Of a stretch of 64,000 nucleotides of DNA, positions 5,835-55,642 are shown piece after piece. The position numbers and the translations under genes are program-made. The notes under the pieces are model-generated. The model had not been told where the DNA came from and ran no database searches. It saw only the letters and a program-made list of their open reading frames with translations. Origin of the DNA: an uncultured Bdellovibrionales bacterium. Its GTDB lineage: Bacteria; Myxococcota; XYA12-FULL-58-9; CAYXVF01. The stretch covers positions 16,531-80,530 of the forward strand of contig CAYXVF010000007.1 of NCBI GenBank assembly GCA_964468125.1, in the 5' to 3' direction. Positions within the stretch are counted from its first letter, which is position 1; each line of letters opens with the position of its first letter.

Positions 5835-5851
5835 GGACCGGGCGGATGCGC

Positions 5852-9526: not shown

Positions 9527-9924
9527 CGGGAGCGCCCCCCAAGAGCAGCAAAACGGCCAGGATCCGGCCCTACAATGACCACGATGGCGCGCATTCGTAT
9601 GAAAAATCCCACTCTTAACAACCCTTTTTCCGCAAAGACGCCTTGATTTGGATCAGCTCTCGGCGGGGCTGTCAGACTCAACACCGACGGCGGCCCGTGG
9701 CGACCCAAAGGAGGTGCATTCTTTGGCCTGTGCGAACGTCACAACTCGACTTATTTGACAGGGCGAGATGCGAGGGTGGTGCGAGATCACGGACCTGGTG
9801 TTGGCCCAGGGGACGTCGTTCAACGACAACCGCTGACATTTCAAAGAGGACAAACCTTGCGCTAGCGCCGAAATTCGTGCACGTCGGGGCGCAACGCAGT
9901 GCGACAGCAGCTGGAGTAAAGAGC

Positions 9925-11022: not shown

Positions 11023-11042
11023 CCTGAAGAACGGGCGCTCGC

Positions 11043-18229: not shown

Positions 18230-19353
18230 CGACACCTCCTGGATTGGGCATCGGCGCACCCCATGAATGCGTTGCCTCGAGCGTTCAGGGCCTCGAGCAT
18301 GTTGCTGCAGAGATCGCGGGGGTTGTCGAAAATCGGCAAGGTCTCGAACGACGTCACCGCGCCGTCCTCCTGTAGCTGCCCGCGCGAGACCCCGGTACGG
18401 CTGAAGGGATTGAACTGCCCGGCGAGCTCTTCGTAGCGTTCGCGATCAACCGCAACGCAGGAGCGGGCGTCGAGATAGGGGCGCGACACGACGTAGCGTC
18501 CCGCGTCCTTCGCCCCAACGAGGCCGAGAAGCCCACCCACCAGACCTCCGCCGGGAAGAACCTTCGGTGCCTCATCGTGAAAGCGCTCGACGACGTGCGC
18601 AAAGGCGCGCCGCGACTCGACCGACTCACTGGGCAGAACCGAGTAGCCGCTGTTGATTCGCCAGCTGTCCACGAGGAGCGTGGAGTCAACCGGCTGCCCT
18701 TCGTCGCGAAGCTCCCGTCCCTGCTGCCCCTGCACCACCGGGGTGAGGTCAAAGCGCGAAACCTCGGCGAGCGCAGCGAATCGTTCCCGGTCAGAGGCGC
18801 GCACCGGCGCAAGAATGCGAACGGAGCCGCGGCCGGTGACGAGACCGCGGTCGTTTAACCCGGCCCGTTGAAAGAAGCCCGCCGCGATGTCGTTCGTAGA
18901 GCCTCCCAATCCCAGCGCTCCGAGGATGAGAGACACGGTCGCGTTCGGCGCGGGGATCTCGAGGTTGGCCACGTCGGGAAGCACCGGCGCGCGCTCCTGG
19001 CGAGCTGCCGTCGGGAGCATCACCGCCGAGACGCTTTGCCGTGCCTGACCTGGAAGAAGCCTCGTGCGTGCCGCGTCGAGATCGAGATAAAGCGCACCGA
19101 CGCGGTCCCGCACGCGATCCCTGGCCTCGTTGAACTTCTCCGTATGCCTGGCGTTTTGACTCTCATAGTCCGAAAGGGGCTCTTGCGCGAAGGCCCAGGT
19201 ATTGAATCGCGCGATCTCCTGGGACTTGAGCTTAAAGAGGCCGACATCGATCAGGTAGACGGAGCCGTAGAACACGCCGATGAGAAGCGGCATGATCAAA
19301 GCGAACTCGGTCAACGCGGAGCCGCGCTCGTATTTCTCCGTTCGCCCTCTCAT
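18226..19353 (-). CDS. TadE/TadG-like pseudopilin (375 aa)
   Basis: N-terminal 'ERGSALTEFALIMPLLIGVFYGSVYL' is the TadE-like motif (PF07811-type). Confidence 0.7.
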   Translation of the reverse strand: MRGRTEKYERGSALTEFALIMPLLIGVFYGSVYLIDVGLFKLKSQEIARFNTWAFAQEPLSDYESQNARHTEKFNEARDRVRDRVGALYLDLDAARTRLLPGQARQSVSAVMLPTAARQERAPVLPDVANLEIPAPNATVSLILGALGLGGSTNDIAAGFFQRAGLNDRGLVTGRGSVRILAPVRASDRERFAALAEVSRFDLTPVVQGQQGRELRDEGQPVDSTLLVDSWRINSGYSVLPSESVESRRAFAHVVERFHDEAPKVLPGGGLVGGLLGLVGAKDAGRYVVSRPYLDARSCVAVDRERYEELAGQFNPFSRTGVSRGQLQEDGAVTSFETLPIFDNPRDLCSNMLEALNARGNAFMGCADAQSRRCR

Positions 19354-21005: not shown

Positions 21006-21982
21006 GGTGCTTCTCCGAGGCTGAACCACACGGGCTCGCGGCGGTTGTCCTCAAACAAATTCGACTGCATCTGCATGGCGTAGCTTGCGCGCAGAGGCAG
21101 GAGATAGAGGTCGTGGCGCTCGGCGAGCCATCGCAGGGTCCGCACTTCCTTGAGCCACTGGCTGGTCGTGAAGAAATCGTCGATGGGTCCGTCGCCGTCC
21201 GAAGAGCGCACCGCGTCCGACAACGTGCGCCCATCGCTCAGGCGCGTCTCGAGCTGCACCCAGTCACCCAGGTCGCTATTGAACGTCCGGCTATGCAGAA
21301 GCTCCTGCGCGAGCCAGAGCTCGAAGAGAATCCGGTTCACGAGCGGGATCCGCAGCGGATAGAGCACACGCACCTCGAGGGCGAGCGTGCCGAGCCCGTC
21401 GGGCGTGTTGGGATCGGCGAACATCGCCACGTCGTCAAAGTCGATCTCGCCGCTCGGGTAGCGCAGGGGCGCGCGCGGATCGACCGATTCGGAGAGGCGC
21501 GCCTGTCGGCTCGCCCACTCCCGAGCCGCCTCGAACTCTTCGCGGGTCGGGCGGGTCACGGCGACTTCGATGAGGGAGATGTCCTGAGCGAGCCCGGCGA
21601 TCTCGACGCCCAGCAGATCGCCGGCGAGACGCTCCACGGTGGCGGTGCCCGTGTCCACAGCCTCGGTGATCTCAGCGGCAGCTTTGACCTTGGCCCACGT
21701 TGCGAGATAGCGGCCGGCGTCATCCGTGCGATCGTAGAGGGGCAAGGTCGCCACCAGCGCGGCGTTGCGCATGACGTTCCAGTCCGCGTTGTGCACGATG
21801 CCCGCGCGGGTCGCGCAGTAGGCGGCGTATTCGGTGAGAATGCGACCGTGCTGCACGAGCATCAGCTGCAGCGCGCCGAGGGCGGCGAAGATCATCACGG
21901 GCATGATGATCGCCGTCTCGACCAGTGCTTGGCCGCGCTCGCCGCGGCGACCGCGACCCGTATGGGACCCAAGGCTCTTCAA
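21002..21982 (-). CDS. TadE-like pseudopilin (326 aa); first gene of the operon
   Basis: 'GERGQALVETAIIMPVMIFAALGALQLMLV' is the classic TadE N-terminus. A 300-nt non-coding region follows upstream (21983-22288). Confidence 0.7.
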   Translation of the reverse strand: MKSLGSHTGRGRRGERGQALVETAIIMPVMIFAALGALQLMLVQHGRILTEYAAYCATRAGIVHNADWNVMRNAALVATLPLYDRTDDAGRYLATWAKVKAAAEITEAVDTGTATVERLAGDLLGVEIAGLAQDISLIEVAVTRPTREEFEAAREWASRQARLSESVDPRAPLRYPSGEIDFDDVAMFADPNTPDGLGTLALEVRVLYPLRIPLVNRILFELWLAQELLHSRTFNSDLGDWVQLETRLSDGRTLSDAVRSSDGDGPIDDFFTTSQWLKEVRTLRWLAERHDLYLLPLRASYAMQMQSNLFEDNRREPVWFSLGEAP

Positions 21983-23644: not shown

Positions 23645-25237
23645 GTGAGCCATCTGCTTCTTCTAACCCTGCTGAGCCAAGCCCCTCAGGTTGAGACGGA
23701 GTTGGTCCTGAGCGAGGCCAACCCGGAGGAAACGATCACCATCGACATTCCTTCCGGCGAGGTGTCGATTCTGCAGCTGAACGTCCTCGACCCGGACTTC
23801 CCAGACGAAGGGGAGCTCTACATCAACGAGATGGGGCCGATCGCGCTCTTTCCCGGCGGAAACGGCGGCCTCGACAGCCAAACCGTCAACATCAACATCG
23901 CGCTCTCCCCGGAGCAGCAGGGTTGGTTCGTGGCCGGCCAGAATGCCCTGCGCTTCACCCGGGTCGCGACCGCGGGATACACGATTTTTAGGATCACCGC
24001 TCTCGGCGATCTCGCTCTCCTCACCTACGACGCGGTCATGCCCACCACGGACCCGGTGGACCAAGCGATGGAGAAGGCCTCCCTGCTCTATCGCCGGCTC
24101 GTCGGCCTACGCACGTCCGTGGACAACCCAACGGTCCGAGCGATGGCCGACTACATCGCCATCGACGATTGGGTCGGTGCGGCGATGGTCGCGACCGAGG
24201 AAGCGGGCTTCTACAACCACGTGGTTCGGGATTTTGCCGCGAAGATGTCAAACCAAGAGGTGAGCGTTGGAGCGCCACTCAACGACTTCGTAGCGACGAT
24301 CGTAGGCATCACCCGGGACGAGCTCGATGCGCGTGAAATGCTCACCGGCGACTTCTTCTATATGGCGACCGGCGACGCAGTGGCCGTGCCCTTGGACGTT
24401 CTTCAGGATGTGGTGACCTCGAACAATCACTACTCCGCCCTCGAGAACGAGCGCTACGACCTCGCTGCAGTTCTGAGCCGCATCGATCAGCAGTACATTC
24501 GCGACCCCTCTGCGACCGACGAGCTCGTAAGCCACCCGGAACCCGCCGGGGTGCTGACCACGCGAGGCTGGATGGAAGCGCACGCGACCGCGGGGACCAA
24601 CCGACGACTCGCGGAGTTTGCGATCAGCGAGTTCACCTGCACGGAGATGGAGCAGTGGGCGGACTCGACGAGCCCAGACGCATTCGTCTGGCGCGACGTG
24701 GACCGCTTCCCTGCCGGTGATGCCGCCCGCTACCAGACCGAGTGCAAGTCCTGCCATGCGAACCTCGATGCGTTCGCCGGCGCCTTCGCGCGCTTCGACT
24801 TCGAGAACGGGTTCACGAAGTACGCGCCGTACTACGCGGACGGCGAGGATGACCCGGACGCGATGAAGCAAGAACCCATGGGCGTCTCCGAGAAGATGAC
24901 CCACAACTCGGACGTCTTCCCGGAGGGATACTCGCTCACCGACGACCACTGGACGAACCTCGCCCGAAGCCCGGCAAACGAAGCACGCTTTGGTTGGCGC
25001 GGCGATGTGAACGAAGGGCAAGGAATCGCGAGCTTCGCGGAGGCGATCGCCAACTCGACGGCCTTCTCGCGCTGCATGGTCGAGCGGGTATTCAACGAGG
25101 TGTGCCTCCGTGCTCCAAGCGCTGCCGAGCTCGAGCTCATCAGTGGCCTCGCCTGCGACTTCGAGGCGAGCGGATACAACCTCAAGCAACTCTTTCAAAC
25201 CGTGGCTGCTCGTCCCGAGTGCCTCGGAGCGCACTAG
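23645..25237 (+). CDS. CxxCH-containing hypothetical protein (530 aa), possibly related to planctomycete DUF158x/159x families
   Basis: GTG start with a GAGAGAGGAG SD. Single 'ECKSCHANLDAF' heme-binding-type motif in the C-terminal third. Family assignment is by gestalt only. Confidence 0.5.
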   Translation: MSHLLLLTLLSQAPQVETELVLSEANPEETITIDIPSGEVSILQLNVLDPDFPDEGELYINEMGPIALFPGGNGGLDSQTVNINIALSPEQQGWFVAGQNALRFTRVATAGYTIFRITALGDLALLTYDAVMPTTDPVDQAMEKASLLYRRLVGLRTSVDNPTVRAMADYIAIDDWVGAAMVATEEAGFYNHVVRDFAAKMSNQEVSVGAPLNDFVATIVGITRDELDAREMLTGDFFYMATGDAVAVPLDVLQDVVTSNNHYSALENERYDLAAVLSRIDQQYIRDPSATDELVSHPEPAGVLTTRGWMEAHATAGTNRRLAEFAISEFTCTEMEQWADSTSPDAFVWRDVDRFPAGDAARYQTECKSCHANLDAFAGAFARFDFENGFTKYAPYYADGEDDPDAMKQEPMGVSEKMTHNSDVFPEGYSLTDDHWTNLARSPANEARFGWRGDVNEGQGIASFAEAIANSTAFSRCMVERVFNEVCLRAPSAAELELISGLACDFEASGYNLKQLFQTVAARPECLGAH

Positions 25238-33447: not shown

Positions 33448-33978
33448 TCAATCCATGTCCTGGCGGAGACGGTCGAAAAACTGCCCCACCTTTGCTTCCG
33501 CCGTGCGGACGAACTGGTTGCTGAAGTACAGCCCTGAAAGGGCGACGACCAAACCCGCCATCGTGGGGATTGTGGCCCGCGACACGCCCGAAGCCATGGC
33601 TCGCGGATTGCCGTTCCCCGACACCGCCATGACGTCGAACACCTCGATCATGCCGGTCACCGTGCCCAAGAGGCCAAACAGTGGCGCCAGCGCCACCAGG
33701 GTCTTGATCAACTGCGTGTTTCGCCGGGCCTCTTCGGCCACCCGAGACACCAGCATCTTTCGCACCTGCTGTGCGTGCCAGGAGCGGAACTCCGCGCGCT
33801 TTTTCCAGTGCTGCAGCTCCTTCGAGATCACGTTGCGATGCTCGAAGTTGAAGTACCAGATGCGCTCGAGAATCAGGGTCCAGAGAACCATCGCCGCGAT
33901 GAAGATCGCGATCAACACGGGCCCGCCTCGGTCGATGAACGCGCCCAAGGCTTCCCAAAGGCGTACGACCGGGTTCAC
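33448..33978 (-). CDS. exbB: MotA/TolQ/ExbB proton-channel protein (short form)
   Basis: 3 TM. 'LAPLFGLLGTVTGMIEVF' is the ExbB signature. ATGA overlap with ttpC. Confidence 0.85.
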   Translation of the reverse strand: MNPVVRLWEALGAFIDRGGPVLIAIFIAAMVLWTLILERIWYFNFEHRNVISKELQHWKKRAEFRSWHAQQVRKMLVSRVAEEARRNTQLIKTLVALAPLFGLLGTVTGMIEVFDVMAVSGNGNPRAMASGVSRATIPTMAGLVVALSGLYFSNQFVRTAEAKVGQFFDRLRQDMD

Positions 33979-35333
33979 GCTGCTTCCTTCTTCTCAGCGC
34001 GCTCGGCGATGATACCGGCGCTCTGCTCGGAGAGGATGTCGATCAGGTTGCGGGTGATGCTCGACAGCCACGAGTGCATGAGTACGAGCGGAATCGCTAC
34101 CACCAGACCGAGCATCGTCGTGACGAGGGCTTCCGAAATACCGCCCGCCATCTGCTTCGGATCGCCCGTACCGAAGAGCGTCAGGGTCTGGAAGGTCTCG
34201 ATCATACCGGTGACCGTACCGAGCAGTCCCATCAACGGTGCAATACCGGCGACGACCTTGATGGCCCACAGGAAGCGTTCCAGTGACGCGGATTCGCGAA
34301 TGATCGATTCGTCGAGCTTCGCTCCTAGCACTTCCGTGTCAACATCCGGGTTCTTCTTGTGCACCATCATGATGCGGCCGAGCGGGTTGCCCTCGCTCGG
34401 CTCTTTGGCCGAGCGTTGCGAGCGGACCTTGGCCGCCACCACGAAGAGCATCGCGAGACGAATCACCGCGACCAGGAAGGTGATCGCGCCGAGCGTGAGG
34501 ATGATGTAGCCAATCAGTCCTCCGAGGGCCAAACGCTCCCGCACCGTCGGCGCCGACACCAAGAGCGAAAGCAGGCTGCCCTGGGTCGGGTCGATTGCGG
34601 CCTGAACAAAGCCATCCTTTGCGTCCAGAAGGCGTTTTGCATCGGCGAGGAAGCGGCTCGCCGGCTGACGGCCGAGCTCTTTGAGCTTCTGCAGATTCGG
34701 GTCCCAGACCATGTACTTGTCGTCCGCGACCGCGGTGAAGGGCCCGATGCGCGCGACGGTGAGGTCTTCCTGCTGACCGTCGGCCCGGATCACCGGCGCC
34801 TCGAACTTCACGATCTCACCGGACGCCACGAGCTCCTGCTGCAGCATGAACCAGAGCGTTTCGAGCTGGTCCACGGACGGCAGCTTCTTGCTCGCGGCGA
34901 GGTCCGTCAGGCGCTCGGCGCGTCCGGGGTACTGAGCGCTCGACAACGAGCCGACGAGCAGACTGTTCGTCTCACCGGCGGAGGCGCGAACCACTCCGAA
35001 GAGCTCGCCGAGCGTACCCAGGCGAATCCGAAGGGTCTCTTCGAGGTCCGCGAGCTTCTTCTCGTTCTCCTCGAATTGCGCTTCCAGCGACTCGCCACGG
35101 CGCTCCTGGCGGGCGAGCTCGGCGCGAGCCTCCTGTAGCTTGCGCGCCTGCGCGTTCTTGTCGGCGAGAAAATCCGCTTCCCGCTTCTTCAGCTCCGCCG
35201 CCTGCGCGTTCCAGCCAGCCTGGACCTTGTTCAGGAGCTCACGTGCAGTGGTAGGCTTTCCCTCTTGGGCCGCAGCCGGTGAGCTGATCAAGGCCAACGC
35301 GAGCGTTGCCGCCCAAAACTCACTTCTTGCCAT
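33975..35333 (-). CDS. large MotA/TolQ/ExbB-family protein with N-terminal periplasmic coiled-coil extension (TtpC-like)
   Basis: Signal peptide plus about 250-aa coiled-coil region. The C-terminal part carries the ExbB signature 'IAPLMGLLGTVTGMIETFQ'. 452 aa, as for Vibrio TonB2-system TtpC. Confidence 0.75.
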   Translation of the reverse strand: MARSEFWAATLALALISSPAAAQEGKPTTARELLNKVQAGWNAQAAELKKREADFLADKNAQARKLQEARAELARQERRGESLEAQFEENEKKLADLEETLRIRLGTLGELFGVVRASAGETNSLLVGSLSSAQYPGRAERLTDLAASKKLPSVDQLETLWFMLQQELVASGEIVKFEAPVIRADGQQEDLTVARIGPFTAVADDKYMVWDPNLQKLKELGRQPASRFLADAKRLLDAKDGFVQAAIDPTQGSLLSLLVSAPTVRERLALGGLIGYIILTLGAITFLVAVIRLAMLFVVAAKVRSQRSAKEPSEGNPLGRIMMVHKKNPDVDTEVLGAKLDESIIRESASLERFLWAIKVVAGIAPLMGLLGTVTGMIETFQTLTLFGTGDPKQMAGGISEALVTTMLGLVVAIPLVLMHSWLSSITRNLIDILSEQSAGIIAERAEKKEAA

Positions 35334-42603: not shown

Positions 42604-43262
42604 GCCGCTTTCTCCACCGGTCGAATCGGCCCTTTGGGCTGCCCGGTGATCATCTCGAGATGCACGTCTCCGATGCGCTTGCCACGGGGAATGTCGTGGG
42701 TAGAGATGAAGAGGGTCGCCCCTTCCGCTTTGAGCTCGGCGATTACTTCTTCCATCAACGCGACGCCCTCCGGGTCCAACTGTCCAAAGGGCTCATCTAG
42801 GAGCACCAGCTCCGGCCTTGCGATCAGCACTCGCGCGAGCCCCAGGCGGCGCTTCATCCCCGCAGAATAGGTCCGGACCGTGCGTTCGCAGGCTTCGCCA
42901 CTCAGTCCAACGCGTTCGATCGCGTCGCCGATCGTCGATCCGGGTCGCTGCACCAGCCGATGCAGCAGCGCGAGGTTTTCGCGTCCACTCAGATCCGAGT
43001 AGAGGTGGCTGTGGTGCGTGAGCAAACACAATCGCGAACGCACCTCATCGTGCTCACGAATTCCGTCCTTGCCGAAGAGCGTGAGGGAGCCGAGCGTTGG
43101 CCGCAGAGCGGTTGCGAGCACACGCAAGAGCGTCGTCTTGCCCGCCCCATTGGAGCCCGTCAGCAAGACCGTCTTGCCTGCTTCGACCTCAAACGACACG
43201 TGCGAGAGCGCCCAGTGCCGTCCAAAGCGCTTTCCTACGCCTTCGAGTTTGACCCATGACAT
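42600..43262 (-). CDS. ccmA: heme exporter ATP-binding protein CcmA
   Basis: Walker A 'GSNGAGKTT', signature 'YSAGMKRRL', Walker B 'VLLDEP'. Confidence 0.85.
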   Translation of the reverse strand: MSWVKLEGVGKRFGRHWALSHVSFEVEAGKTVLLTGSNGAGKTTLLRVLATALRPTLGSLTLFGKDGIREHDEVRSRLCLLTHHSHLYSDLSGRENLALLHRLVQRPGSTIGDAIERVGLSGEACERTVRTYSAGMKRRLGLARVLIARPELVLLDEPFGQLDPEGVALMEEVIAELKAEGATLFISTHDIPRGKRIGDVHLEMITGQPKGPIRPVEKAA

Positions 43263-43288
43263 CGCGACCCCTTATTAGATATCCCACG

Positions 43289-44992
43289 ATGAACGAAGAG
43301 CAAATCAAGGCGTGGCTTTCGCGGGACCCGGATCATGAAACCCGTGAAGAGGTAAGCGCGCTTCTGGAAAGCGGTGATCACGACGCGCTCGTCGATCGCT
43401 TCCTCGGTCGTCTCGAATTCGGCACTGCCGGCCTGCGCGGAGTGCTCGGCGGCGGTCCCAATCGCATGAATCGCCTGGTCGTGATCGAGAGCTCTCTGGG
43501 CTTTGCACGCTATGTGAAAGACTCGGTCGACGACGCTGCTGAGCGTGGCATTGCGATCGCTTACGATGGACGTAGGAAGTCGGACGTCTTCGCGCGCGAC
43601 GCGGCCGCTGCCTTCGCCCACCACGGCCTCAAGGTGCATCTGTTCTCGCGCATGATGCCGACGCCCGCGGGCGCCTTTGCGGTGAAGCACCTGGGTGCGG
43701 CTGCAGGGGTGATCATCACGGCGAGCCACAATCCCCCCGAATACAATGGCTACAAGGCCTACTGGGAAAACGGTGCCCAGATCATTTCACCGGTAGACAA
43801 AGGCGTCGCCGCGGCCATCGACGAGGTGGCGAAGGCGCCCCTTCCGGAGCTCGACTTCGAGGCGGCGCGCGCAGCCGGCTCGATCGTCGAGATTCCCGAA
43901 TCGGTCATCGAAGCCTATCTCGACGGCGTAGAAGCTCAGCTCATCCATCGCGGCGAAGGGGACCGATCCATTGGCGTCGCGTATACCCCGCTGCACGGCG
44001 TCGGCGCGGAGCTCGTGAAGAAATCCATGGCGCGCGCCGGTTTTGAGCATCTTCGGGTCGTCCCGTCGCAGGAGCAGCCCGACGGTGAGTTCCCGACCGT
44101 TCGCTTCCCCAACCCGGAGGAGCCCGGGGCGATGGACGCAGTGCTGAAACTCGCGCGCGAGATCGACGCAGAGCTCGCTGTCGCCAACGATCCGGACGCG
44201 GATCGCCTCGCAGTCGCCGTCAAGGAGGGCGAAAGCTATCGTATGCTGACCGGCGACGAGATCGGCACGCTCCTCGCACACGATTTGCTCTCTCGCGCCT
44301 CCGACGATGCGGCGGTGGCGACGACCATCGTCTCCTCTTCTTTGCTGCGCTACATGGCGGAGGCGCGCGGCGTCGAGTACTTCGAGACGCTCACTGGCTT
44401 CAAGTGGATCGCAAACGGGAACATCGCGCGTCAGGCGGCGGGAAAACGCTTCCTCTTCGGCTACGAAGAAGCGCTCGGCTACACCATCGGCGACAACGTG
44501 CGCGACAAGGACGGCGTGGTGGCGATGGTCGCGTTCGCGGAGATGGCCGCCGTAGCCAGAAGTGCCGGCCGTAGCGTGCTCGACGACCTCTACGACATCT
44601 ACCGCGAGCACGGGGTCGTGCTCACCAAGCAAAAGAGCCTGAAACTTCCTCCGGGCCCGCCCGTCGGGCGCACGCTGCGCGCGAAGCCACCGGAGACCAT
44701 CGCCGGCCGCGCGGTCACGGCGATGGAAGATCTCGCGAGCTCGACCCGGCGCTTCATGGACGGTCGTGAAGAGTCGATCGACCTGCCGAGCAGTGACGTC
44801 CTGATTTACCGGCTCGAGGGCGACGCGCGCGTGGTGATCCGGCCCTCTGGGACCGAGCCCAAGCTCAAGTGCTACTACCTCGTGCGACGAGCGGTGGGTG
44901 ACGGAGACCCACGCGCCGTGGAGCAGGAAGCGCGCGATGAGCTCGATGCGCTCCTGGATACGCACCAACGAGAGCTCGAGGCCATTCTCTGA
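43289..44992 (+). CDS. phosphoglucomutase/phosphomannomutase (alpha-D-phosphohexomutase family)
   Basis: Active-site 'ITASHNPPEYNGYK', Mg loop 'AYDGRRKSD', sugar-binding 'GYEEALGY'. The ATG at 43289 avoids overlap with the divergent ccmA. The listed ORF starts at 43256. Confidence 0.85.
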   Translation: MNEEQIKAWLSRDPDHETREEVSALLESGDHDALVDRFLGRLEFGTAGLRGVLGGGPNRMNRLVVIESSLGFARYVKDSVDDAAERGIAIAYDGRRKSDVFARDAAAAFAHHGLKVHLFSRMMPTPAGAFAVKHLGAAAGVIITASHNPPEYNGYKAYWENGAQIISPVDKGVAAAIDEVAKAPLPELDFEAARAAGSIVEIPESVIEAYLDGVEAQLIHRGEGDRSIGVAYTPLHGVGAELVKKSMARAGFEHLRVVPSQEQPDGEFPTVRFPNPEEPGAMDAVLKLAREIDAELAVANDPDADRLAVAVKEGESYRMLTGDEIGTLLAHDLLSRASDDAAVATTIVSSSLLRYMAEARGVEYFETLTGFKWIANGNIARQAAGKRFLFGYEEALGYTIGDNVRDKDGVVAMVAFAEMAAVARSAGRSVLDDLYDIYREHGVVLTKQKSLKLPPGPPVGRTLRAKPPETIAGRAVTAMEDLASSTRRFMDGREESIDLPSSDVLIYRLEGDARVVIRPSGTEPKLKCYYLVRRAVGDGDPRAVEQEARDELDALLDTHQRELEAIL

Positions 44993-45172
44993 GCCACCGG
45001 TGTGGCCATACTTCGGCTGTGGTTTCGCCTCTCGGGCTCACCACGATTTGACGGATGCGGGAGCGAGCCATTTCGCATTTCGGGCTTGGCCGTGTCAGTA
45101 TGGACGCGCGGCGGGCCCGCCGCGACGCAAGGATGGGAGCCAGACGCGGGAGGAGCCCGCGGAGGCCTGGAG

Positions 45173-48100
45173 ATGAAATTGGACCGATTGAGCCTCCTGA
45201 CGCTCGCAGGCCTCTGTTCGTGCGTGGCGGATCCTCTTTCGAATGGGCAGCCTCTCCTCTGCAGCGAAGACACCGAGTGTGAAGAGCGCTTTGGCGAGGG
45301 GTGGCGCTGCCTGAGTGGCGGTTGTGTGCTGAACGCCCCGCCTCAGATCGATGGCTTCGCGCTCGCCGATGATGAATCCTTCGAGGCGGGCCCGTTCTTC
45401 GTCCGCCAGCCCATGACCGTGACCGTTCGGGTGGCCGGAACGGACTCGGACGGCGATACGGTCAGCTTCACCTGGATCGAGGAAGAAGAGAGCCGCCCCC
45501 TGCCCGACCGGAGACCGGCGCAAAGCTTCACGGGTAATTCGATCACCATCGAGAGCACGACCCCCGGCCAACCGCTCTCCCTCGGAAGCTACCGCTATCG
45601 TGTGGTGCCGAATGACGACCGCGTCGACGGCGCGGCGCGCACCGTCGTGGTGACGATCGTAGCGGCCGGGGACGTGATTTTCGTTTCGCAACTCACGGGC
45701 GAGGATTCAGACTCCTGCGGCACGATCGAGCGTCCATGCCGGAGCTTGGGTCAGGCGCTGAGCCGCTCCCCCGGTTCGACCATTCAATTGGCCGCCGCCG
45801 CGTCGCCGTACTTCTACTGCCTCGGACGAGACGCGCCGGGTACCTTTGCAGAGCCCGTGCCCATCGCGATGGAGGGGTGCTTCGACCCGCTGAGCTGGGA
45901 GCCAGTCTCGAGTCGGCGCCGCGAGTGCGAGATCCAGTGCGAGCCCGATTCCATCACCGTCGACGCCGACGAATTCGGTGTCGGACACGTGTTGGTCGGC
46001 CCGAGTAGACTGTACGACGTGACCCTCACCCTGAACCCACAGACCGTCCTCCCCGCCGAAATCGTCGCCGGCACCGCGTTGCTCCAGCCGAACGTAGATG
46101 TGAATGTGCCTGAATTCGACCGAATCGAGCTCACAAACGTCGATGTCGTCGCGCCCGGATGCGGCGATAGCTGCGTCTCCGTCGGGGTCGGAGCCCAGGA
46201 CGTCGAGGTCGCGATCGATCGCGTCGACGTCGTCGCCGACGCTCGCGAGTTCAGCCCGGTGTTCTCGTTTATCGGGATCTCCCTCGAGCGCAGCCGCGGC
46301 ACGGTTGTCGGGGGCTTGCTGGGTGCAACCATTCCCAGCGCACCGGACGCGCGCAAGGACTTGGTGGCGCGCTCCCGGGGCCGGATTTCGCTCAACGCTC
46401 CGGCGAGCTCGGACGCGGTCGGGGTGAGCGCCATCGATTTTAGCGGGACCCTTCGAGGACTCGCCGTCACCGGCGGTATCGGGCTTGGAATATCGGGGTT
46501 CAACCTCGAAGGCGGAAGCCCCGTCCTAGAGGACAACCTCGTAGACGTGCTGGGCTTCAGCACGCGCGCGGTTTCTGGCTTCACCCTGCATGACTGCAGC
46601 GCTGATGGCGGGTGCGCAATCTCGGGGGCGACTCCCGCAGACCGGCCACTGAACGCGATCGTGCGCAACAACACGGTCTACCTCGCGGGCGCGAGCGAGC
46701 TCGAAACCAGCTCCCCGTGCGTCGGCCTCGGGGTTCAGCTCGACTCGAGGAGCGCCAACCAGGTGATCGAGTCGAACACGGTCGTGTTGGGCAGCGAGTT
46801 CACCCTCGGGATCGGCGCCTCGATCGCTCTCGACGATCAAGGATCGAATACGTCTTTCGCTTCCGTGAGCTCGAACCACATCGCGGTGCGTGGCGCCAAT
46901 CGCGATGAGCTGTGCGTGCTCATCAACGGAGAGCTCGGTCTACCTTTCAACGCGGGACTTCTCGGCGTGCGCGTATCGGGCTCGACGCGGGCACGCGTGG
47001 ACCGGAACCGCATCGAGATCGGTCACTTGAGCTCGAGCGAGGATCCCTACAGCGTCGGCCCAGAGCTCATTTCCACGGGGATCTCCGTCACTAGCGCGCA
47101 GGATTCGACCGATCCCATGCGGGTGACTCAAAACGAAGTGTTGGTGGGACAGGGTCCTTCGCAGAGCTTCGCCCTCTCAACCGACACCTCACGGATCGAA
47201 ATCGTCAACAACCTGCTCTACGGTGGCGATACGCCCCGCTCCGGCGGACTCCTGATTCTCGCGACGGACAACGATGTCGACACGAACGGGCAATCTTCGA
47301 CCCCTTTTCCGATCCTACGACACAATACGATCCACGGCGGCGGGGTACTGGGTCGCACCGCATCGAGCCGAGGATTGCAGCTCAGCCTGGCTCCGGTGTC
47401 GCTCGAGCTAGACAAACTGCGACGCATCGGAACACTCACGGGCAACCTCATCGACGGCGGCTGGGGCCAGGGTCGGCGACACATCGTAGACAATGAGATG
47501 AACCAAGGTGAGCCGCTCCTTCCAGGCGTCACCTTCGCCCCGAGCAGTGACTACGGCCAACTCGTCGGTGCTGCGAGCGAAGAACGTCCCGTGGCCGCGA
47601 CGGCGAGCCTGAACGGCCGCGGCGAGCGTTGGAGGGTGTTCACGGCGGCCGGCGAGGTGCTCTCCCTCTCCGAAGAAGAGAGCCCGAGTCGCCTGGAGCT
47701 CGTCGACGAGGCGCCGGTGCGCCTCGACAGGCCGGTCTACGACGTCGAAGAATTTGACGCCGGCACGGGCCGCGTCGTGGCTGCGAGCACGGCGGGGATC
47801 GGAATCGCATCGATCGTCTCCGACAGTTCGGCGAGTGATGGCGCATTTGACGTCTATCCGCTGGGTGATGTGGAGCTCATCGATGTCCTCGATGTCACCA
47901 CGAGAGCCACCCGAGAGGATCTGCAGGTGCTCGTTCTCGCGGAGACCGCCGACGGGCCCTCTCTCTTCGCCACCGCCTCCTCGAACGGCTTCACTCCGCT
48001 CACGCCATTCCCGGTGATTCCTGCCGGTCGACCGTTTCTCCTGCTCGCACGTAGTCCCGCCGGCACGGTGCTGGGGCTCAGAGCCGGGACGGCCGCAGGC

Positions 48101-48973
48101 TACGAGCTCGTTCAGATCGCACCCACCGGCGAGCTCAAGAATGTCGCTACCCTCCTCGGCACGGGCGTGCCCCGGGAGCTCGTCCCTCTCAGGAGAGGTC
48201 TTTCCATCGACAGCTCGGGGCTCGATTTCGCGTTGGTCCACGACGGAGGCCTGGAGATCTTCTTGGACGTACAAGGAGGAACCCCCAGGCTCTGTGCTGC
48301 GGGTGCCTCCTTTCCCGACTGCGACGACTTCGCGGTGACGGCCACGGACGTGTGTGTGGGAGGCGTAGCCAGCGGCGTACTCGAGCTCCCGAGCAGCGAC
48401 GCCGAGCAGCTCTTCCTCGTCGGCTGCAGCACCGGCGAGGTCGAAATCCAAAGTCGGGTCGGCGATACGTTGAGCTTTGTGAGTCGGGCTTCCGTATCAG
48501 AGCCCAGCGCGGGCGACATCGACTCACCGATCACGGCGCTCGCGGCGAGGCCGGGGCTCACAATGCGTCGTGCACGCGTTCTGGCGCTTTTGCCAGACGC
48601 GGGCGTGCTTGCCGTGTTCGAGCTCGACGAAAACTCGCTCGCGCTCACTCCGGGGCCGATCTACGGCGACTTCGCAAATGTCGCTCTGCGCACGACGAAT
48701 GGCGTACCGCTGCAGAGCCTGACGCAGGTGAGCGACCTCACTCTCGTCGCCCCATCCGTGAGTTGTGAGGTGATCGCACCCGCACCGATGTCCGAAACAC
48801 CCGAGGAAGAGCGCGACCGTATTCGCAACCTTCGCCTCCTCGGCGGCTCGTGTGTGAACTCGACGGAGCTCACCCTCGAGCCACTGGATGTCGATGTCGA
48901 TGGAGTAATGCGAGACTGCGAGCCAGACGTGGGGGCTTCGGAGCTCACGTCGAGCCCGGGGGCCTGCCCATGA
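45173..48973 (+). CDS. large (1266 aa) lipoprotein with Myxococcus-type Cys-rich disulfide repeat and right-handed parallel beta-helix repeats
   Basis: GGAGG SD 7 nt upstream. Lipobox 'LTLAGLCSC'. 'CSEDTECEERFGEGWRCLSGGC' is a C-x5-C-x9-C-x4-C Myxo-disulfide-repeat pattern. The long central region has periodic 'N/T-x-V-x-G' beta-helix-like turns. Confidence 0.6.
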   Translation: MKLDRLSLLTLAGLCSCVADPLSNGQPLLCSEDTECEERFGEGWRCLSGGCVLNAPPQIDGFALADDESFEAGPFFVRQPMTVTVRVAGTDSDGDTVSFTWIEEEESRPLPDRRPAQSFTGNSITIESTTPGQPLSLGSYRYRVVPNDDRVDGAARTVVVTIVAAGDVIFVSQLTGEDSDSCGTIERPCRSLGQALSRSPGSTIQLAAAASPYFYCLGRDAPGTFAEPVPIAMEGCFDPLSWEPVSSRRRECEIQCEPDSITVDADEFGVGHVLVGPSRLYDVTLTLNPQTVLPAEIVAGTALLQPNVDVNVPEFDRIELTNVDVVAPGCGDSCVSVGVGAQDVEVAIDRVDVVADAREFSPVFSFIGISLERSRGTVVGGLLGATIPSAPDARKDLVARSRGRISLNAPASSDAVGVSAIDFSGTLRGLAVTGGIGLGISGFNLEGGSPVLEDNLVDVLGFSTRAVSGFTLHDCSADGGCAISGATPADRPLNAIVRNNTVYLAGASELETSSPCVGLGVQLDSRSANQVIESNTVVLGSEFTLGIGASIALDDQGSNTSFASVSSNHIAVRGANRDELCVLINGELGLPFNAGLLGVRVSGSTRARVDRNRIEIGHLSSSEDPYSVGPELISTGISVTSAQDSTDPMRVTQNEVLVGQGPSQSFALSTDTSRIEIVNNLLYGGDTPRSGGLLILATDNDVDTNGQSSTPFPILRHNTIHGGGVLGRTASSRGLQLSLAPVSLELDKLRRIGTLTGNLIDGGWGQGRRHIVDNEMNQGEPLLPGVTFAPSSDYGQLVGAASEERPVAATASLNGRGERWRVFTAAGEVLSLSEEESPSRLELVDEAPVRLDRPVYDVEEFDAGTGRVVAASTAGIGIASIVSDSSASDGAFDVYPLGDVELIDVLDVTTRATREDLQVLVLAETADGPSLFATASSNGFTPLTPFPVIPAGRPFLLLARSPAGTVLGLRAGTAAGYELVQIAPTGELKNVATLLGTGVPRELVPLRRGLSIDSSGLDFALVHDGGLEIFLDVQGGTPRLCAAGASFPDCDDFAVTATDVCVGGVASGVLELPSSDAEQLFLVGCSTGEVEIQSRVGDTLSFVSRASVSEPSAGDIDSPITALAARPGLTMRRARVLALLPDAGVLAVFELDENSLALTPGPIYGDFANVALRTTNGVPLQSLTQVSDLTLVAPSVSCEVIAPAPMSETPEEERDRIRNLRLLGGSCVNSTELTLEPLDVDVDGVMRDCEPDVGASELTSSPGACP

Positions 48974-49980
48974 CGGTCGCGCTCATTCTCTTCACGCTCG
49001 CAGCAACAGGCGCGGGTACGGACGGCACGGACGCTGCGGCACCGACGGTCGAACGGATTCGCCCCCTCGACGACGGGCGAGTGATCCTGCTCGGCCCCCT
49101 GGGCAGCTTCGGTTCCACCGGTGAAGCAGTCGAAGCGATCCAGCGGGTCTACATTTCAGAATTTGAGAAGCTCCTCGGCGAACAGCTACGCACCCCCGCA
49201 GACCTCGCGGCGATCGATGGGACGGTCGCCGAAGCGGTCGACGGCTGCGGCTCGACGCCGCCCTGCTTGCTCGAGGTGGCAGCAGCGTTCGGTTTGGACA
49301 GCGTGATCACGGGAAACCTCACCGGCCTCGGCGACGATCGAGTCATCGATCTTCGTCACCTGAGCGCGGTGAACGGTAAGGAGCTCGGCCGTCAATCGGT
49401 GCAAGCCAGTGGCAACGAACGGGAGCTGATCATCAAGATCCGCGGCGCGGCAGTTCAGCTCCTCGCGCCGGAGCGCTACATCGGCACGGTCGCCTTTGAC
49501 GTGAAGCAAACCGGGGTCCGGGTGGTCGTGGACGGACAGCTCGTGGGGACGACCCCCTTGCCGCGCGGAGAGCTCGACTTGCGCGTGGGCCGCCACGCGA
49601 TCGAGGCGAGCGGCGAAGGCCTCGTGCCCTTCTCAGAGATGGTCGACGTGCGCTACGGCGAGCTTCGCTCCGTGACCATCGACCTGCCGCCGAATACGGT
49701 GTTCGTCGGCGGAGACACCCCCTACTATGCGCGCTGGTGGACCTGGGCGATCGCCGGAGCTGGGGCCACGAGTCTCGGTCTAGGCGGCTACTTCAGCTAC
49801 CTACAAAACGATACGGTGAGCGAGATCGAAAACCGCGTCGACGCAGGCTCGCTCACCGGCGAGGACGCCTTTCTCTACCAGGACCAGGACGAACAACGAC
49901 AACGGGCGCTGATTTTCTACGGGATCGGCGGCGCCTTGACCCTCACGACGGCCACCCTGCTGAGCCTCGACCTATTCTGA
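48970..49980 (+). CDS. PEGA-domain membrane protein
   Basis: N-terminal signal/TM 'MTVALILFTLAATGAG'. PEGA motif 'VAFDVKQTGVRVVVDGQLVGTTPLPRGELDLRVGRHAIEASGEG'. C-terminal TM 'WWTWAIAGAGATSLGLGGYF'. ATGA overlap with the upstream stop. Confidence 0.7.
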   Translation: MTVALILFTLAATGAGTDGTDAAAPTVERIRPLDDGRVILLGPLGSFGSTGEAVEAIQRVYISEFEKLLGEQLRTPADLAAIDGTVAEAVDGCGSTPPCLLEVAAAFGLDSVITGNLTGLGDDRVIDLRHLSAVNGKELGRQSVQASGNERELIIKIRGAAVQLLAPERYIGTVAFDVKQTGVRVVVDGQLVGTTPLPRGELDLRVGRHAIEASGEGLVPFSEMVDVRYGELRSVTIDLPPNTVFVGGDTPYYARWWTWAIAGAGATSLGLGGYFSYLQNDTVSEIENRVDAGSLTGEDAFLYQDQDEQRQRALIFYGIGGALTLTTATLLSLDLF

Positions 49981-50184
49981 GCACTGTCCAGGCGCGTCCT
50001 GCCGAGGGAGCGGGACAAAAAGTAAATCAGGTACGTGTCTCACCGCTTGCCAACGCGAACACCGGTGGATATGACGCCGCCCATTCGGGGGGACACTGAA
50101 ATCACGCGCGTGTTTTCGTGATCCCTTCGAGACAATGAATGGGCGGGGTTACCCGCAATGGCAATTGGAATGAGGAATAGCGGT

Positions 50185-50406
50185 ATGGCAGCAGAAGAGC
50201 CTCAAAAAGGCACCGTCAAGTGGTTTAACGACGCCAAGGGCTTCGGATTCATCACCCCCGAGGGCGGTGGTGAAGACATTTTCGTCCACTTCTCGGCGAT
50301 CAACGTCGATGGGTTCAAGTCTCTCGCCGAGGGCGAGCGCGTGCAGTTCATCTGCGTACGCGGTGACAAGGGCCTCCAGGCTCGGGACGTCAGCCGCGCA
50401 AACTGA
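50185..50406 (+). CDS. cold-shock protein (CspA family)
   Basis: '[32 protein letters not shown]' carries RNP1/RNP2. GAGGAA SD. Long 5' leader of about 200 nt. Confidence 0.9.
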
Positions 50407-52230: not shown

Positions 52231-54285
52231 GTGCCAAGTGATCCCCGCTACGACGTCCTCTTCGAGGCGGTGCCGATCGGCCCCGTCACCGCAAAGAACC
52301 GCTTCTACCAAGTACCCCACTGCAACGGCATGGGGCATCGGGCACCCAAAGCCCACGCGGCGATGCGAGGGATGAAGGCGGAAGGCGGATGGGCGGTGGT
52401 GAGCACGGAGGAAGTGGAGATCCATCCCTCCGGCGACATCACGCCGTACATCGAAGGTCGGATATGGGACGATCGCGACATCCCCTATCTGCAATTGATG
52501 ACCGACGCGGTCCACGCGCACGGCTCCCTCGCCGCGATCGAGCTCGTCCACAACGGCCCGTCTTGCGCAAACCTCAACACCCGCATTCCGCCGATCGCCC
52601 CGTCCCACATGCCCGTGTTCTGGCACACGCCGACCCAGGCCCGTGCGATGAGCAAACGCGATATCAGCGACTATCGCCGCTGGCACCGCGAAGCCGCGCT
52701 CCGCGCAAAGCGTGCGGGCTTCGACATCGTCTACGTTTACGCGGGGCACAACCTTTCGCTGCCCATGCATTTTCTGTCGCGGCGCCGTAATCACCGCGCG
52801 GATGAGTATGGCGGATCCCTGGAAAACCGAGCACGCCTCCTCAAAGAGCTCCTCCAGGAAACGAAAGAAGCAGTAGGCGACACGTGCGCCGTCGCAATTC
52901 GCTTCGCGGTCGACGAGCTCGCGGGACCGGACGGTATTCGTGCGGACGCGGAGGGTCGAGACGTCGTGGAAATGCTGGCGGAGCTTCCGGACCTCTGGGA
53001 CGTGAACGTCGCCGATTGGGTGAACGACTCACAAACCGCTCGCTTCGCAGAAGAGGGGTACCAAGAGCCCTACACCGCCTTCGTCAAGCGCGTGACCTCG
53101 AAGCCCGTCGTGGGCGTCGGTCGCTTCACGTCGCCGGACACGATGGTCTCGCAAATCAAGCGCGGGGTGCTCGACTTCATCGGCGCTGCCCGGCCGTCCA
53201 TTGCCGATCCCTTTCTCCCGAAGAAAATCGAAGACGGCGAGCTCCAGCGCATTCGTGAGTGCATTGGCTGCAATATCTGCGTCAGCGGGGACATGACCAT
53301 CTCGCCGATCCGCTGCACGCAAAACCCCGCGATGGGTGAAGAATGGCGGCGAGGTTGGCACCCGGAACACGCGCCCAGGGCTGCTCGGCAGCGGCACATC
53401 TTGGTCGTCGGTGGAGGTCCTGCCGGGCTCGAAGCCGCTCGCGTAGCCGCGCTCCGCGGACACCGCGTGACCGTGGCTGAGGCCAAGAGGGTGCTCGGCG
53501 GACGCCTCGTGGCGGAAGCAAAGCTGCCGGGACTCGCGAGCTGGATCCGAGTGCGAGACTACCGCGAATGGGAGCTCAAACGCTTCGAGCAGGCGGAGAT
53601 CTATCTCGAGAGCGCCCTCGGCGTGGATGACATTCTCGAGCTCGCCCCCGATACGGTCGTGCTCGCCACCGGCGCCCGTTGGCGCAAGGACGGCGTAGGT
53701 CGCGCGCACCACAAGGCGATCCCGGGCTTCGAGCGCGCCTTGACCCCAGACGAGGTCATGGCAGGTCCTCTACCCGAAGGCCGAATCGTGATCTTTGACG
53801 ACGACCACTATGTGATGGGCGGGGTGCTCGCCGAGCTCTTGACCCGCGCCGGAAGAGAGGTCGTTCTCGTGACCCCCGCAGCGTCGGTCTCCGCCTGGAC
53901 CAGCCACACCCTCGAGCACGGACCGATTCAAAAACGCATGCGCGAGCTCGGCGTCCGGATCGAGCGCGAGCGCGACGCGGTCGAATGGCGCATCGACGGG
54001 CTCGTGACCCGGGACGTTTACAGCGACGAGCGCAGCCTCATCGAGGCAAGCGCCTTGGTGTCGGTTACCGCACGGCTTCCAAACGACGAGCTCCTGCAAG
54101 CGATGGAGGTGCGCCGCGACGAGCTGACCGCCGCGGGAATCGAGCATTTCGAGGCGATCGGCGACGCTCATTGTCCGGCGACCGTTGCCGCCGCGGTCTG
54201 GAGCGGCTACCGCTTCTCCTTCGAGCTCGACCAGGACGCAGGAGCAGTCGCGATGAAGCGACAGATTCACGGCGAGGCGTATTGA
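52231..54285 (+). CDS. NADH:flavin oxidoreductase (OYE-like TIM barrel) fused to FAD/NAD(P)-binding domain; 2,4-dienoyl-CoA reductase / TMADH-like
   Basis: 'LFEAVPIGPVTAKNRFYQVPHCNGM' is the OYE N-terminus. The 4Fe-4S Cys cluster is 'CIGCNICVSGDMTISPIRC'. 'ILVVGGGPAGLEAA' is the dinucleotide fold. GTG start. Confidence 0.8.
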   Translation: MPSDPRYDVLFEAVPIGPVTAKNRFYQVPHCNGMGHRAPKAHAAMRGMKAEGGWAVVSTEEVEIHPSGDITPYIEGRIWDDRDIPYLQLMTDAVHAHGSLAAIELVHNGPSCANLNTRIPPIAPSHMPVFWHTPTQARAMSKRDISDYRRWHREAALRAKRAGFDIVYVYAGHNLSLPMHFLSRRRNHRADEYGGSLENRARLLKELLQETKEAVGDTCAVAIRFAVDELAGPDGIRADAEGRDVVEMLAELPDLWDVNVADWVNDSQTARFAEEGYQEPYTAFVKRVTSKPVVGVGRFTSPDTMVSQIKRGVLDFIGAARPSIADPFLPKKIEDGELQRIRECIGCNICVSGDMTISPIRCTQNPAMGEEWRRGWHPEHAPRAARQRHILVVGGGPAGLEAARVAALRGHRVTVAEAKRVLGGRLVAEAKLPGLASWIRVRDYREWELKRFEQAEIYLESALGVDDILELAPDTVVLATGARWRKDGVGRAHHKAIPGFERALTPDEVMAGPLPEGRIVIFDDDHYVMGGVLAELLTRAGREVVLVTPAASVSAWTSHTLEHGPIQKRMRELGVRIERERDAVEWRIDGLVTRDVYSDERSLIEASALVSVTARLPNDELLQAMEVRRDELTAAGIEHFEAIGDAHCPATVAAAVWSGYRFSFELDQDAGAVAMKRQIHGEAY

Positions 54286-54598
54286 GTCGCCACGGCCGGT
54301 CGTTTGTGTCAGTCGTCCTCTTTGAGCGTCGACGACAGCTCGCCGTCGAGGCCCACCACTGAGCGCGCCCCGTTCTCCGCCATGCGTCCGAGAGACTCGA
54401 GCTGTCGAAGCTTGAGCTACGCGCGGGAAAGAGTGCGTATTCGGGTAATGAGTCCTGATTTCTTGGAAAGATTCAACACGCGCACCTTCCGCTTCTGCCG
54501 GGCGGCCGACGGGTCGGAGGGTCGCAGGGAACCACAGTCTCGAAAAGCGGCCCCGACCGAATCGAAAAGAAGTGCTCTCTGCGCTAGGCTCTTCTCCC

Positions 54599-55642
54599 AT
54601 GCGGCGCTCACTCGGCTTTTTCGTGCTCTTCGTGTCCGCCTGTGGAGGTGGCCCGTACCAGCAGAGCTGATGCCTGCGCCCGAGCTCTATCAGGACGGCA
54701 CGATCGACCCCTTCATCGAGTCTGAGGAGTCGCTGAGTGAGATCCCCGGAATTCTTTACGCCACTGATCGACACCCCGCGGGACCGGATGACGATGAGCC
54801 GTTCTATCTGAACGACCGTGGTGGGGTCGTCCGACTCGGCGTCGCCAACATCGGTGTAGACGGCGACCTCGACTGGGAGGACGTTCGAGACGTCTCTATG
54901 ATGAGAGAGCGCAGCAAGAAGCTGAAGCTTCGGGTGACTCGCGTGGACGAGCTCGGAGTGCTCGACCGCACGGTGACCGACTTCACCCGAGACCTCGCCT
55001 CGGACCTCGACCCCAAAGGGCCATCCAGCCTCTTCGCGCGCTTGGTCAACCAGAAGCTCGCGCGCTCGAAGCACAACGACGTCTACATCTACGTGAACGG
55101 CTACAAGGTGCCTTTCGAGAGCGGCGTGCTGATCGCAAGCGAGCTCTGGCATTTCCTCGGCTATCAGGGCGTTTTCATGGCCTACCCCTGGCCCACCTCG
55201 CCGGCCACCTTCGCCCACGCGGGCGATATCGAGACCGCGGCGGGTTACGCCCGTAACCTGCGCGAATTACTGCGTTTCCCTGAGTGAAGAGACCGAGACG
55301 GAACGGATGATCCACATCGTCGCCTATAGCGCCGGGAACCGGGGTATGCCTGAGCGCACACGAGAGTATCTGCGGCGCCTGAAGGAGCGCGCGCACGTCA
55401 TCAACGTCACCGAGGCACGGGATGCGACGTCCGGTAACGGCCACGGCTATTTCTTGGCAAGCCTGTCGGTGAGCAGCGACATTCTGATGACACTGATGTA
55501 CAGACTCGACCCGGAGGGGCGCGGCCTCACCCGTGGTGGAGACGGTGTCTGGTTCTTTCCCGACGACTACGTCGACCGGCTTCGCGTTGCGCTGCGGTCA
55601 GCTGCCGAGAAAGAGGCGCGGAGCACGAACGACAGCGAGTGA
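54599..55642 (+). pseudogene. DUF900-type alpha/beta-hydrolase lipoprotein split into three frames (signal peptide / body / catalytic C-terminus)
   Basis: Frame 2, 54599-54670: 'MRRSLGFFVLFVSACGGGPYQQS*' is a lipoprotein signal. Frame 1, 54670-55287: '...IYVNGYKVPFESG...AYPWPTS...'. Frame 2, 55307-55642: 'MIHIVAYSAGNRG', a GxSxG-like nucleophile elbow. Junctions are TGATG (54668-54672) and a 19-nt gap. Alternative reading: three translationally coupled ORFs. Confidence 0.5.

Follow-up and report, generated by a model that had tools for sequence, protein, structure and literature searches.

An overlapping gene pair encoding a beta-helix lipoprotein and a PEGA-domain protein: a possible envelope module of uncultured Myxococcota

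Background

Two genes on the forward strand of a 64,000-nucleotide stretch of contig CAYXVF010000007.1 (hereafter the window; assembly GCA_964468125.1, from an uncultured Bdellovibrionales bacterium placed by GTDB in the Myxococcota) overlap by the four letters ATGA. The first encodes a large protein of 1266 residues and the second a smaller protein carrying a PEGA domain. An earlier note, made from the sequence only, had described them as a beta-helix lipoprotein with a Myxococcus-type disulfide repeat, coupled to a PEGA membrane protein, and had proposed a surface adhesin or S-layer-like module. Do the products of these two genes act together and, if so, in which compartment and in what capacity? 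The coordinates of both open reading frames (ORFs) and of the stop/start overlap were borne out from the sequence (Table 1). Our answer, which we hold with moderate confidence, is that the two proteins are produced together and serve in the envelope as a binding or scaffolding pair without catalytic activity, in one mostly marine, uncultured Myxococcota lineage.

Domain organisation of the large protein

The start of the large gene was placed at the ATG of position 45173 and not at an upstream GTG (position 45002), because a GGAGG motif lies 7 nt before this ATG and all homologues align from the corresponding methionine. An AlphaFold2 (AF2) model of residues 164-1266 was built from 32 family sequences and was confident (predicted local distance difference test, pLDDT, 85.6; predicted template modelling score, pTM, 0.86). 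In this model three-stranded coils are stacked as a right-handed parallel helix of about 630 residues. Taking the canonical rise and the 49 strands of the prediction, we estimate that the helix would have about 16 coils and a length of roughly 8 nm. Its best structural match in the PDB is the passenger of the autotransporter Vag8 (PDB 7akv), with 16% identity. At the sequence level the Pfam Beta_helix model (PF13229) stays below threshold on the window protein (E-value of 0.14, 12.2 bits for a cut-off of 25.9) and is detected at E-values of at most 5.4e-4 in 3 of 32 relatives. The structure prediction and fold search proposed in the earlier note therefore did find a beta-helix; the note had extended it over a very long region, about a third of the protein being in fact a beta-propeller that had been missed.

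Conservation within the family is highest in the N-terminal cysteine module, the helix and the C-terminal tail, and lowest in the propeller. Identity in the tail rises again to 29-73%, and its residues D1241, R1247 and E1257 are 97-100% conserved over 32 sequences, the tail motif ending most family members. The conserved polar positions of the helix are mostly asparagines, together with glycines and cysteines, which we read as probably structural. The only other strongly conserved candidate residues are H272, D578, D761 and R768/R769, and no catalytic signature could be recognised in the large protein.

The N-terminus is a hydrophobic signal ending in a lipobox (consensus [LVI][ASTVI][GAS]C). 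The lipoboxes of the relatives are canonical (LTGC, LIAC, LAGC, LAAC and similar), that of the window protein, L-C-S-C, being less so. In the set recovered by the exhaustive search described below, nearly every full-length representative has a C-x-x-[DE]-P motif after the lipobox, followed by a module of four cysteines. The lipobox recognised in the earlier note is thus real and conserved, but the residue predicted to be lipidated is the invariant C17 and not C15.

The spacing C-x5-C-x9-C-x4-C of the four-cysteine module was confirmed, and a search of all six translated frames of the window found it a single time. All four cysteines (30, 36, 46 and 51) are invariant in 8 family members. The label of a Myxococcus-type disulfide repeat could not be kept: neither the Myxococcus cysteine-rich repeat model (NCBIfam/TIGRFAM) nor Pfam DUF4215 matched the whole protein at E-values up to 1, the repeat did not match the isolated module of 7 relatives at E-values up to 10, no other curated model was matched, and the module is present in single copy. 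The isolated modules of these 7 relatives showed sub-threshold similarity to EB, DUF7107, Dickkopf_N and Nodulin_late alone. A similar four-cysteine module, CQKDDQCLAGFICEANLC, follows the lipobox of a 1144-residue lipoprotein encoded at another locus (L007, positions 9119-12553, reverse strand). Lipoproteins of this group may therefore share the module as an N-terminal building block that can be reused.

Between the module and the helix, the family profile matches the PKD domains of KIAA0319L in the PDB with an E-value of 5.4e-7 (profile positions 81-158). Consistently, Pfam K319L-like_PKD is detected in 16 of the 32 family members (best E-value 4.5e-16), the window protein alone remaining below Pfam significance. 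NCBIfam matches to M36 metallopeptidases were obtained with full-length relatives and disappeared with a window fragment devoid of the PKD domain. We therefore attributed them to a common PKD region rather than to a peptidase domain, and rejected this candidate.

The composition of the large protein is extreme, with 4 lysines for 80 arginines, a net charge of -83 and, in the mature protein, 24 cysteines of which 14 are conserved. Such a composition fits an exported, disulfide-bonded protein.

The PEGA-domain partner

The N-terminal hydrophobic stretch of the partner resembles a signal peptide; as it contains no cysteine, the partner is not a lipoprotein. PelC is the best fold match of the domain that follows, which adopts the PelC fold in the AF2 model. 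The PEGA domain proposed in the earlier note stands: it passes the gathering cut-off of Pfam PF08308 (24.9 bits for 20.8, residues 177-241) and is found in 27 of 27 aligned homologues (best E-value 2.4e-10). The protein ends with two hydrophobic membrane segments separated by a polar acidic turn, the hydropathy profile delineating a segment 313-336 and a glycine-rich segment W256-L278. This hairpin is kept in close homologues and is missing from the distant P0031 and P0032. Of the two membrane anchors attributed to this protein in the earlier note, the N-terminal one is better described as a signal peptide, and the C-terminal one holds in the form of a two-helix hairpin. The partner would accordingly be a periplasm-facing inner-membrane protein held by this hairpin in the predicted model. 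It follows the same compositional trend as the large protein (4 lysines, 21 arginines, net charge of -19).

An extracytoplasmic, envelope location is supported for both predicted products by the lipobox and the 24 cysteines of the mature large protein, and by the signal peptide and invariant cysteine pair of the partner.

Table 1. Position in the window of the gene pair, of the domains of its products and of the flanking genes
Feature	Position	Strand	Basis
Gene of the large lipoprotein, 1266 aa with its signal peptide (ATG 45173, TGA 48971-48973)	45173..48973	+	ORF
Shine-Dalgarno-like GGAGG, 7 nt 5' of the large gene ATG	45161..45165	+	Read from sequence
Predicted signal peptide with lipobox, residues 1-17	45173..45223	+	C17 invariant in 8 full-length family members (alignment)
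Four-cysteine module C30-x5-C36-x9-C46-x4-C51, putative small disulfide knot, unnamed	45260..45325	+	Sequence CSEDTECEERFGEGWRCLSGGC
PKD-like immunoglobulin (Ig) domain, about residues 55-165	45335..45667	+	Family profile against PDB
Right-handed parallel beta-helix, about residues 165-795	45668..47557	+	AF2 model
Beta-propeller with some 7 blades, residues ~806-1173; evolves fastest	47588..48691	+	AF2 model, fold search
Conserved C-terminal tail, motif D-x-D-G-x2-R...D-x-G-A-x-E, Cys1227/1249/1265	48818..48970	+	Family alignment
ATGA start/stop overlap of the two genes	48970..48973	+	Sequence
PEGA partner gene, 336 aa	48970..49980	+	ORF; 30 homologues; AF2 model pLDDT 86.6
N-terminal hydrophobic signal peptide and low-complexity linker, residues 1-27	48970..49050	+	Sequence MTVALILFTLAATGAG...; short helix 3-12, pLDDT <50 (AF2)
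PelC/LpoB/TolB-N-like alpha/beta domain, residues 39-165	49084..49464	+	AF2 model; invariant C93 and C99
PEGA domain, beta-sandwich, residues 171-241	49480..49692	+	Pfam and AF2 (sandwich 171-237)
C-terminal helical hairpin, helices 256-292 and 297-335	49735..49974	+	AF2, pLDDT >90
Phosphoglucomutase (PGM) gene, conserved same-strand upstream neighbour	43256..44992	+	Pfam PGM_PMM I-IV
Cold-shock-domain (CSD) gene, conserved downstream neighbour, about 180 bp after the pair	50158..50406	+	ORF translation

Conservation of the gene pair across lineages

The pair is retained in 9 lineages, namely the window and the loci designated L001, L003, L005, L006, L009, L010 (partial), L012 and L017. An identical ATGA overlap is present in 6 of them (the window, L001/L002, L003/L004, L005, L012 and L017, the homology of the latter being established by hhalign with an E-value of 5e-104). 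In L006 (BLASTP E-value 2e-46) the two genes abut as TAG followed by GTG; in L009 they are separated by a 12-nt gap containing GGAG; and the L010 contig is too short for the junction to be called. L009, from a metagenome-assembled genome (MAG) labelled 'Deltaproteobacteria', carries the large gene at 1970-5905, the PEGA gene at 5917-6921 and, directly after it, a second, diverged paralogue of the large gene at 6678-10568.

The identity of the large proteins across these lineages is 24-53%, two homologues being at 53% and 32% and those of L012 and L017 at about 24-27%. The partner is 48-85% identical over the same comparisons, for instance 85% where the large protein is at 53%, and about 50% where it is at about 25%. 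This asymmetric divergence, together with the propeller being the least conserved part, agrees with a membrane partner under constraint and a large protein that is exposed, adaptable and turned towards its ligand.

Most pair loci share the gene order ccmABC, phosphoglucomutase, the pair, a cold-shock gene and, on the opposite strand, a gene for a ComM-like ATPase. In L001, L003, L005, L009, L012 and L017 the large gene directly follows PGM, which it does not do in L006; the CSD gene keeps its position in L001, L003, L005 and L017. As the whole neighbourhood is common to these loci, their agreement is partly inherited synteny. In L006 all the neighbours differ and the two genes are still adjacent. 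Upstream, on the same strand as the pair, L006 encodes secreted-like proteins of 706 and 449 residues (631-4097), with signal-peptide-like N-termini and no Pfam match. Downstream, a 746-residue DsbH-like thioredoxin (9000-11240) begins 13 bp after the pair, and genes for GlmS and GlmU are also found. We note the presence there of a disulfide-handling neighbour beside a protein with 24 cysteines.

The description of the pair as a conserved unit is thus supported by the 9 lineages, the 6 shared junctions and the different neighbourhood of L006. The conditions that the earlier note had set for its refutation were mostly not borne out. As to whether the PEGA gene occurs apart from such partners in other genomes, the pair is kept in the lineages above, and PEGA orthologues stand alone in L007, L008/L011, L013 and L014. 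In L007 the lone PEGA orthologue is convergent with the gene of the 1144-residue lipoprotein mentioned above and overlaps its end. This protein was considered as a displaced partner and rejected, since it shares no homology with the large protein. Likewise, the ORFs upstream of the lone PEGA gene in L008 were considered as a frameshifted large gene and proved to encode maltokinase and GlgB. A distant PEGA relative without a large gene was also observed in L018, within a tandem PEGA pair.

Family size and database searches

The family of the large protein surfaced through the neighbours of PEGA homologues and through an exhaustive HMMER search of 1.84 billion protein representatives with an E-value threshold of 0.001. 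The latter recovered 41 relatives, nearly all of 1200-1400 residues and of the same architecture, and none of them provided a bridge to another family, enzymes included. A word-indexed homologue search started from the large protein had returned 3 family members, and a profile of 8 sequences added PKD-domain matches only. Scanning the collections with the PEGA alignment, using one very specific peptide pattern, gave 2 genome and 7 metagenome loci, and the co-occurrence count is correspondingly small. Where relatives carry a name, it is that of an uncultured Myxococcota or 'Deltaproteobacteria' MAG.

Nothing significant was obtained for the large protein with Pfam and NCBIfam. The cytoplasmic enzyme family that the earlier note had named as a possible refutation was looked for by these profile searches and none was found. 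Among the families of Pfam and NCBIfam there was no match of either protein to SLH or another S-layer family, no autotransporter family and, for the partner, no Pel family. Our search of the literature on PEGA domains retrieved no functional study of such a pair.

Proposed role of the pair and alternative explanations

The envelope binding or scaffold pair that we favour would operate as follows. One mRNA would yield both proteins, their translation being coupled through the ATGA overlap. A type II (lipoprotein) signal would direct the export of the large protein, and a lipid on Cys17 would anchor it. Once in an oxidising compartment, the protein would fold as a disulfide-stabilised, very acidic, multi-domain protein, with in order a 4-Cys knot, a PKD-like Ig domain, a right-handed beta-helix of the autotransporter-passenger type, a propeller of about 7 blades and an acidic tail. 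The helix, with the PKD domain, would make a rigid acidic stalk and the fast-evolving propeller its ligand-facing end. The partner would be inserted in the inner membrane by its C-terminal two-helix hairpin, holding its PelC/LpoB/TolB-N-like and PEGA domains near the membrane on the periplasmic side, and would most likely dock, position or help to assemble the lipoprotein, which could eventually span the periplasm or reach the surface.

Several observations weigh against this proposal. Much of the conservation of the pair accompanies that of the whole neighbourhood, L006 being the only independent context. The PEGA orthologues encoded without a large gene (42-48% identity) indicate that the partner has a role independent of the large protein, and that the coupling is frequent but not obligatory. 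In the hairpin, the first of the two hydrophobic helices is rich in glycine and of no more than moderate hydrophobicity. The residues H272, D578, D761 and R768/R769, along with the acidic tail motif, could form an active or metal site, which makes a catalytic role conceivable. Finally, what the data show directly is the structure and overlap of the genes, the conservation of the pair, the domain folds, the lipobox and the lack of known enzyme signatures; the contact between the two proteins is one that we infer, as are the lipidation, topology, non-catalytic role and final location read from their sequences.

The alternative that survives best, although we judge it unlikely, is a polysaccharide-handling module. 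The beta-helix lipoprotein, in the periplasm or at the surface, would then bind glycans or act on them as a lyase, hydrolase or epimerase, the PelC-like/PEGA partner would be a scaffold anchored in the membrane that guides a glucan or an exopolysaccharide across the envelope, and PGM would supply glucose-1-phosphate. Gene order speaks for it: only one lineage lacks a same-strand PGM gene immediately before the pair, GlgB precedes PGM in L017, maltokinase (Mak) and GlgB precede the lone PEGA gene in L008, and GlmS and GlmU are encoded near the pair in L006. However, PGM, GlgB and Mak are cytoplasmic enzymes of the glycogen/trehalose pathways whose adjacency may be inherited synteny, and the neighbouring genes examined include no glycosyltransferase, polymerase, flippase or Wza/PelB-type porin. 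The folds can be read in the same direction. Pectate lyases, GH28 enzymes and AlgG-type epimerases usually adopt a right-handed beta-helix, glycan-active beta-helices being prevalent, PKD domains and propellers are often glycan-binding, with PLL fucose lectins among our propeller matches, and PelC, the best match of the partner, is part of the Pel exopolysaccharide exporter. The few conserved candidate residues of the helix point the same way. Yet the best structural match of this helix is a non-enzymatic passenger, the partner has no equivalent of the lipid anchor of PelC, and no glycan-active family was matched in Pfam, NCBIfam, the PDB sequences or the 1.84-billion-protein search.

The interpretation of the earlier note, in which the large protein is a surface adhesin or an S-layer-like protein and the PEGA protein its outer anchor or a secretion adaptor, appears quite unlikely. 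Adhesins are typically made of such elements as a passenger-like helix, PKD domain and propeller, the distal domain is a fast-evolving one, the large protein is very acidic and the pair is conserved. PEGA domains were, moreover, first described in cell-surface proteins (PMC2447325). But the only membrane element of the partner is an alpha-helical hairpin placed after a periplasmic domain, which points to the inner membrane, and a protein so placed, whose periplasmic domain is PelC/LpoB-like, is a poor fit to a surface or S-layer anchor. Searches with Pfam and NCBIfam detected in neither protein a beta-barrel, SLH, sortase-type or any other surface-sorting signal, no known surface-lipoprotein exporter is found among the neighbouring genes examined, and nothing points to the formation of a lattice. 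For the large protein, which may itself be exposed at the surface, the interpretation retains some weight.

A more specific arrangement, which we regard as very unlikely, is a trans-envelope tether, in which a rod anchored in the outer membrane (PKD domain, helix and propeller) would traverse the periplasm and dock on an inner-membrane ring of the PelC-like/PEGA protein. If true, it would be a new kind of bridge or spacer between the outer and inner membranes in this Myxococcota lineage.

That the two are unrelated envelope genes brought together by a compact, inherited gene order is very unlikely: the block of ccmABC, PGM, pair, CSD and ComM-like genes is indeed syntenic in most loci, PEGA orthologues persist alone in L007, L008, L013 and L014 and 4-bp gene overlaps are common in GC-rich genomes, but mere coincidence of neighbours is made unlikely by the adjacency of the pair in L006 despite wholly different neighbours, by the second large-gene paralogue right after the PEGA gene in L009 and by an ATGA junction that is unchanged while the large protein falls to about 24-27% identity (L012 and L017). 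A phage origin (tailspike-like beta-helix) and a defence system were also considered and rejected, no match being obtained with PHROGs or PADLOC.

Genomic context of the pair in the window

The window is GC-rich (about 0.61-0.67). The PGM gene is possibly co-transcribed with the pair. No regulatory RNA was found in the 180-bp leader and no tandem repeats were found at the DNA level in the large gene. A terminator-like hairpin was flagged inside the CSD gene, on the opposite strand (50235-50209).

A gene for a GH57-type alpha-amylase/4-alpha-glucanotransferase is located at 11043-13379 on the reverse strand and, with PGM, indicates that genes of glucan metabolism are scattered through this region. 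Such genes recur at the related loci, with GlgB-PGM at 272-4073 of L017, maltokinase-GlgB at 94-3782 of L008 and a glycogen phosphorylase near the lone PEGA gene of L007. These recurring neighbours could be either inherited synteny or a functional hint.

Elsewhere in the window, a 452-residue ORF (33975-35333, reverse strand) has a MotA/TolQ/ExbB channel domain confined to its last ~110 residues (328-433), after a long N-terminal region to which no domain is assigned. Long ORFs without a Pfam match at the thresholds used were observed at 4344-5834, 7841-9526, 19353-21029 and 53770-55218 on the reverse strand and at 23645-25237 on the forward strand. In a window of this GC content, some of them may be spurious shadow ORFs.

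Significance

Every domain of the two proteins is a known fold, and it is their combination that lies outside any curated family queried. The coupling of a lipid-anchored protein of the order knot-PKD-helix-propeller with one of the order PelC-like/PEGA/hairpin is a new architecture, and the family is unnamed. If the envelope binding or scaffold pair is real, it constitutes an unnamed, lineage-restricted envelope module (41 representative clusters among 1.84 billion proteins), provides the PEGA domain, which is widespread but has no function attached to it, with a definite partner and a role open to testing, and offers a lipoprotein route for displaying a passenger-type beta-helix without the autotransporter barrel. 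As the organisms are uncultured and all the folds familiar, the immediate impact is limited to annotation and to the biology of the Myxococcota envelope.

Comparison with known systems

The alpha/beta domain of the partner resembles PelC (PDB 5t0z, 9h80) and the fold shared by LpoB, the TolB N-domain and CsgG, with 9-18% identity. The partner differs from PelC in having no lipobox, its signal peptide being devoid of cysteine, and in carrying, after the PelC-like domain, first PEGA and then a membrane hairpin of two helices. No pel genes were seen here or in related loci, nor any tol, curli or penicillin-binding protein genes near the pair; membership of the PelC family is therefore not assigned. 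With PEGA proteins (PF08308) the partner shares a domain scoring above the curated cut-off, which covers only ~70 residues and has no assigned function. For the architecture as a whole (signal peptide, PelC-like domain, PEGA domain and hairpin, coupled to a beta-helix lipoprotein), neither a curated model nor a paper was found.

The propeller of the large protein has the fold of ligand-binding 7-bladed propellers, such as the EPTP domain of LGI1, the PLL/PHL fucose lectins of Photorhabdus and integrin alpha, at ~10% identity. In contrast to these, it has no repeat family detectable from its sequence and is poorly conserved within its own family, and no ligand can be deduced from it.

Myxococcus cysteine-rich repeat proteins, such as TraA, are the context in which that repeat is known. 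Like them, the large protein appears to be exported, is cysteine-rich and belongs to the Myxococcota. Its module differs in being single and not tandem, in having 4 cysteines with a different spacing and in matching no profile.

There is also a likeness to autotransporter passengers (Vag8 of Bordetella pertussis, pertactin type), whose helix is of the same fold type as that of the large protein. Type V autotransporters end in a beta-barrel translocator, whereas the C-terminal third of the large protein is made of the propeller and a short tail. The large protein would instead be anchored by an N-terminal lipid and, at 16% identity to the Vag8 helix, adds to this common fold a PKD domain and 4-Cys knot on one side and a beta-propeller on the other.

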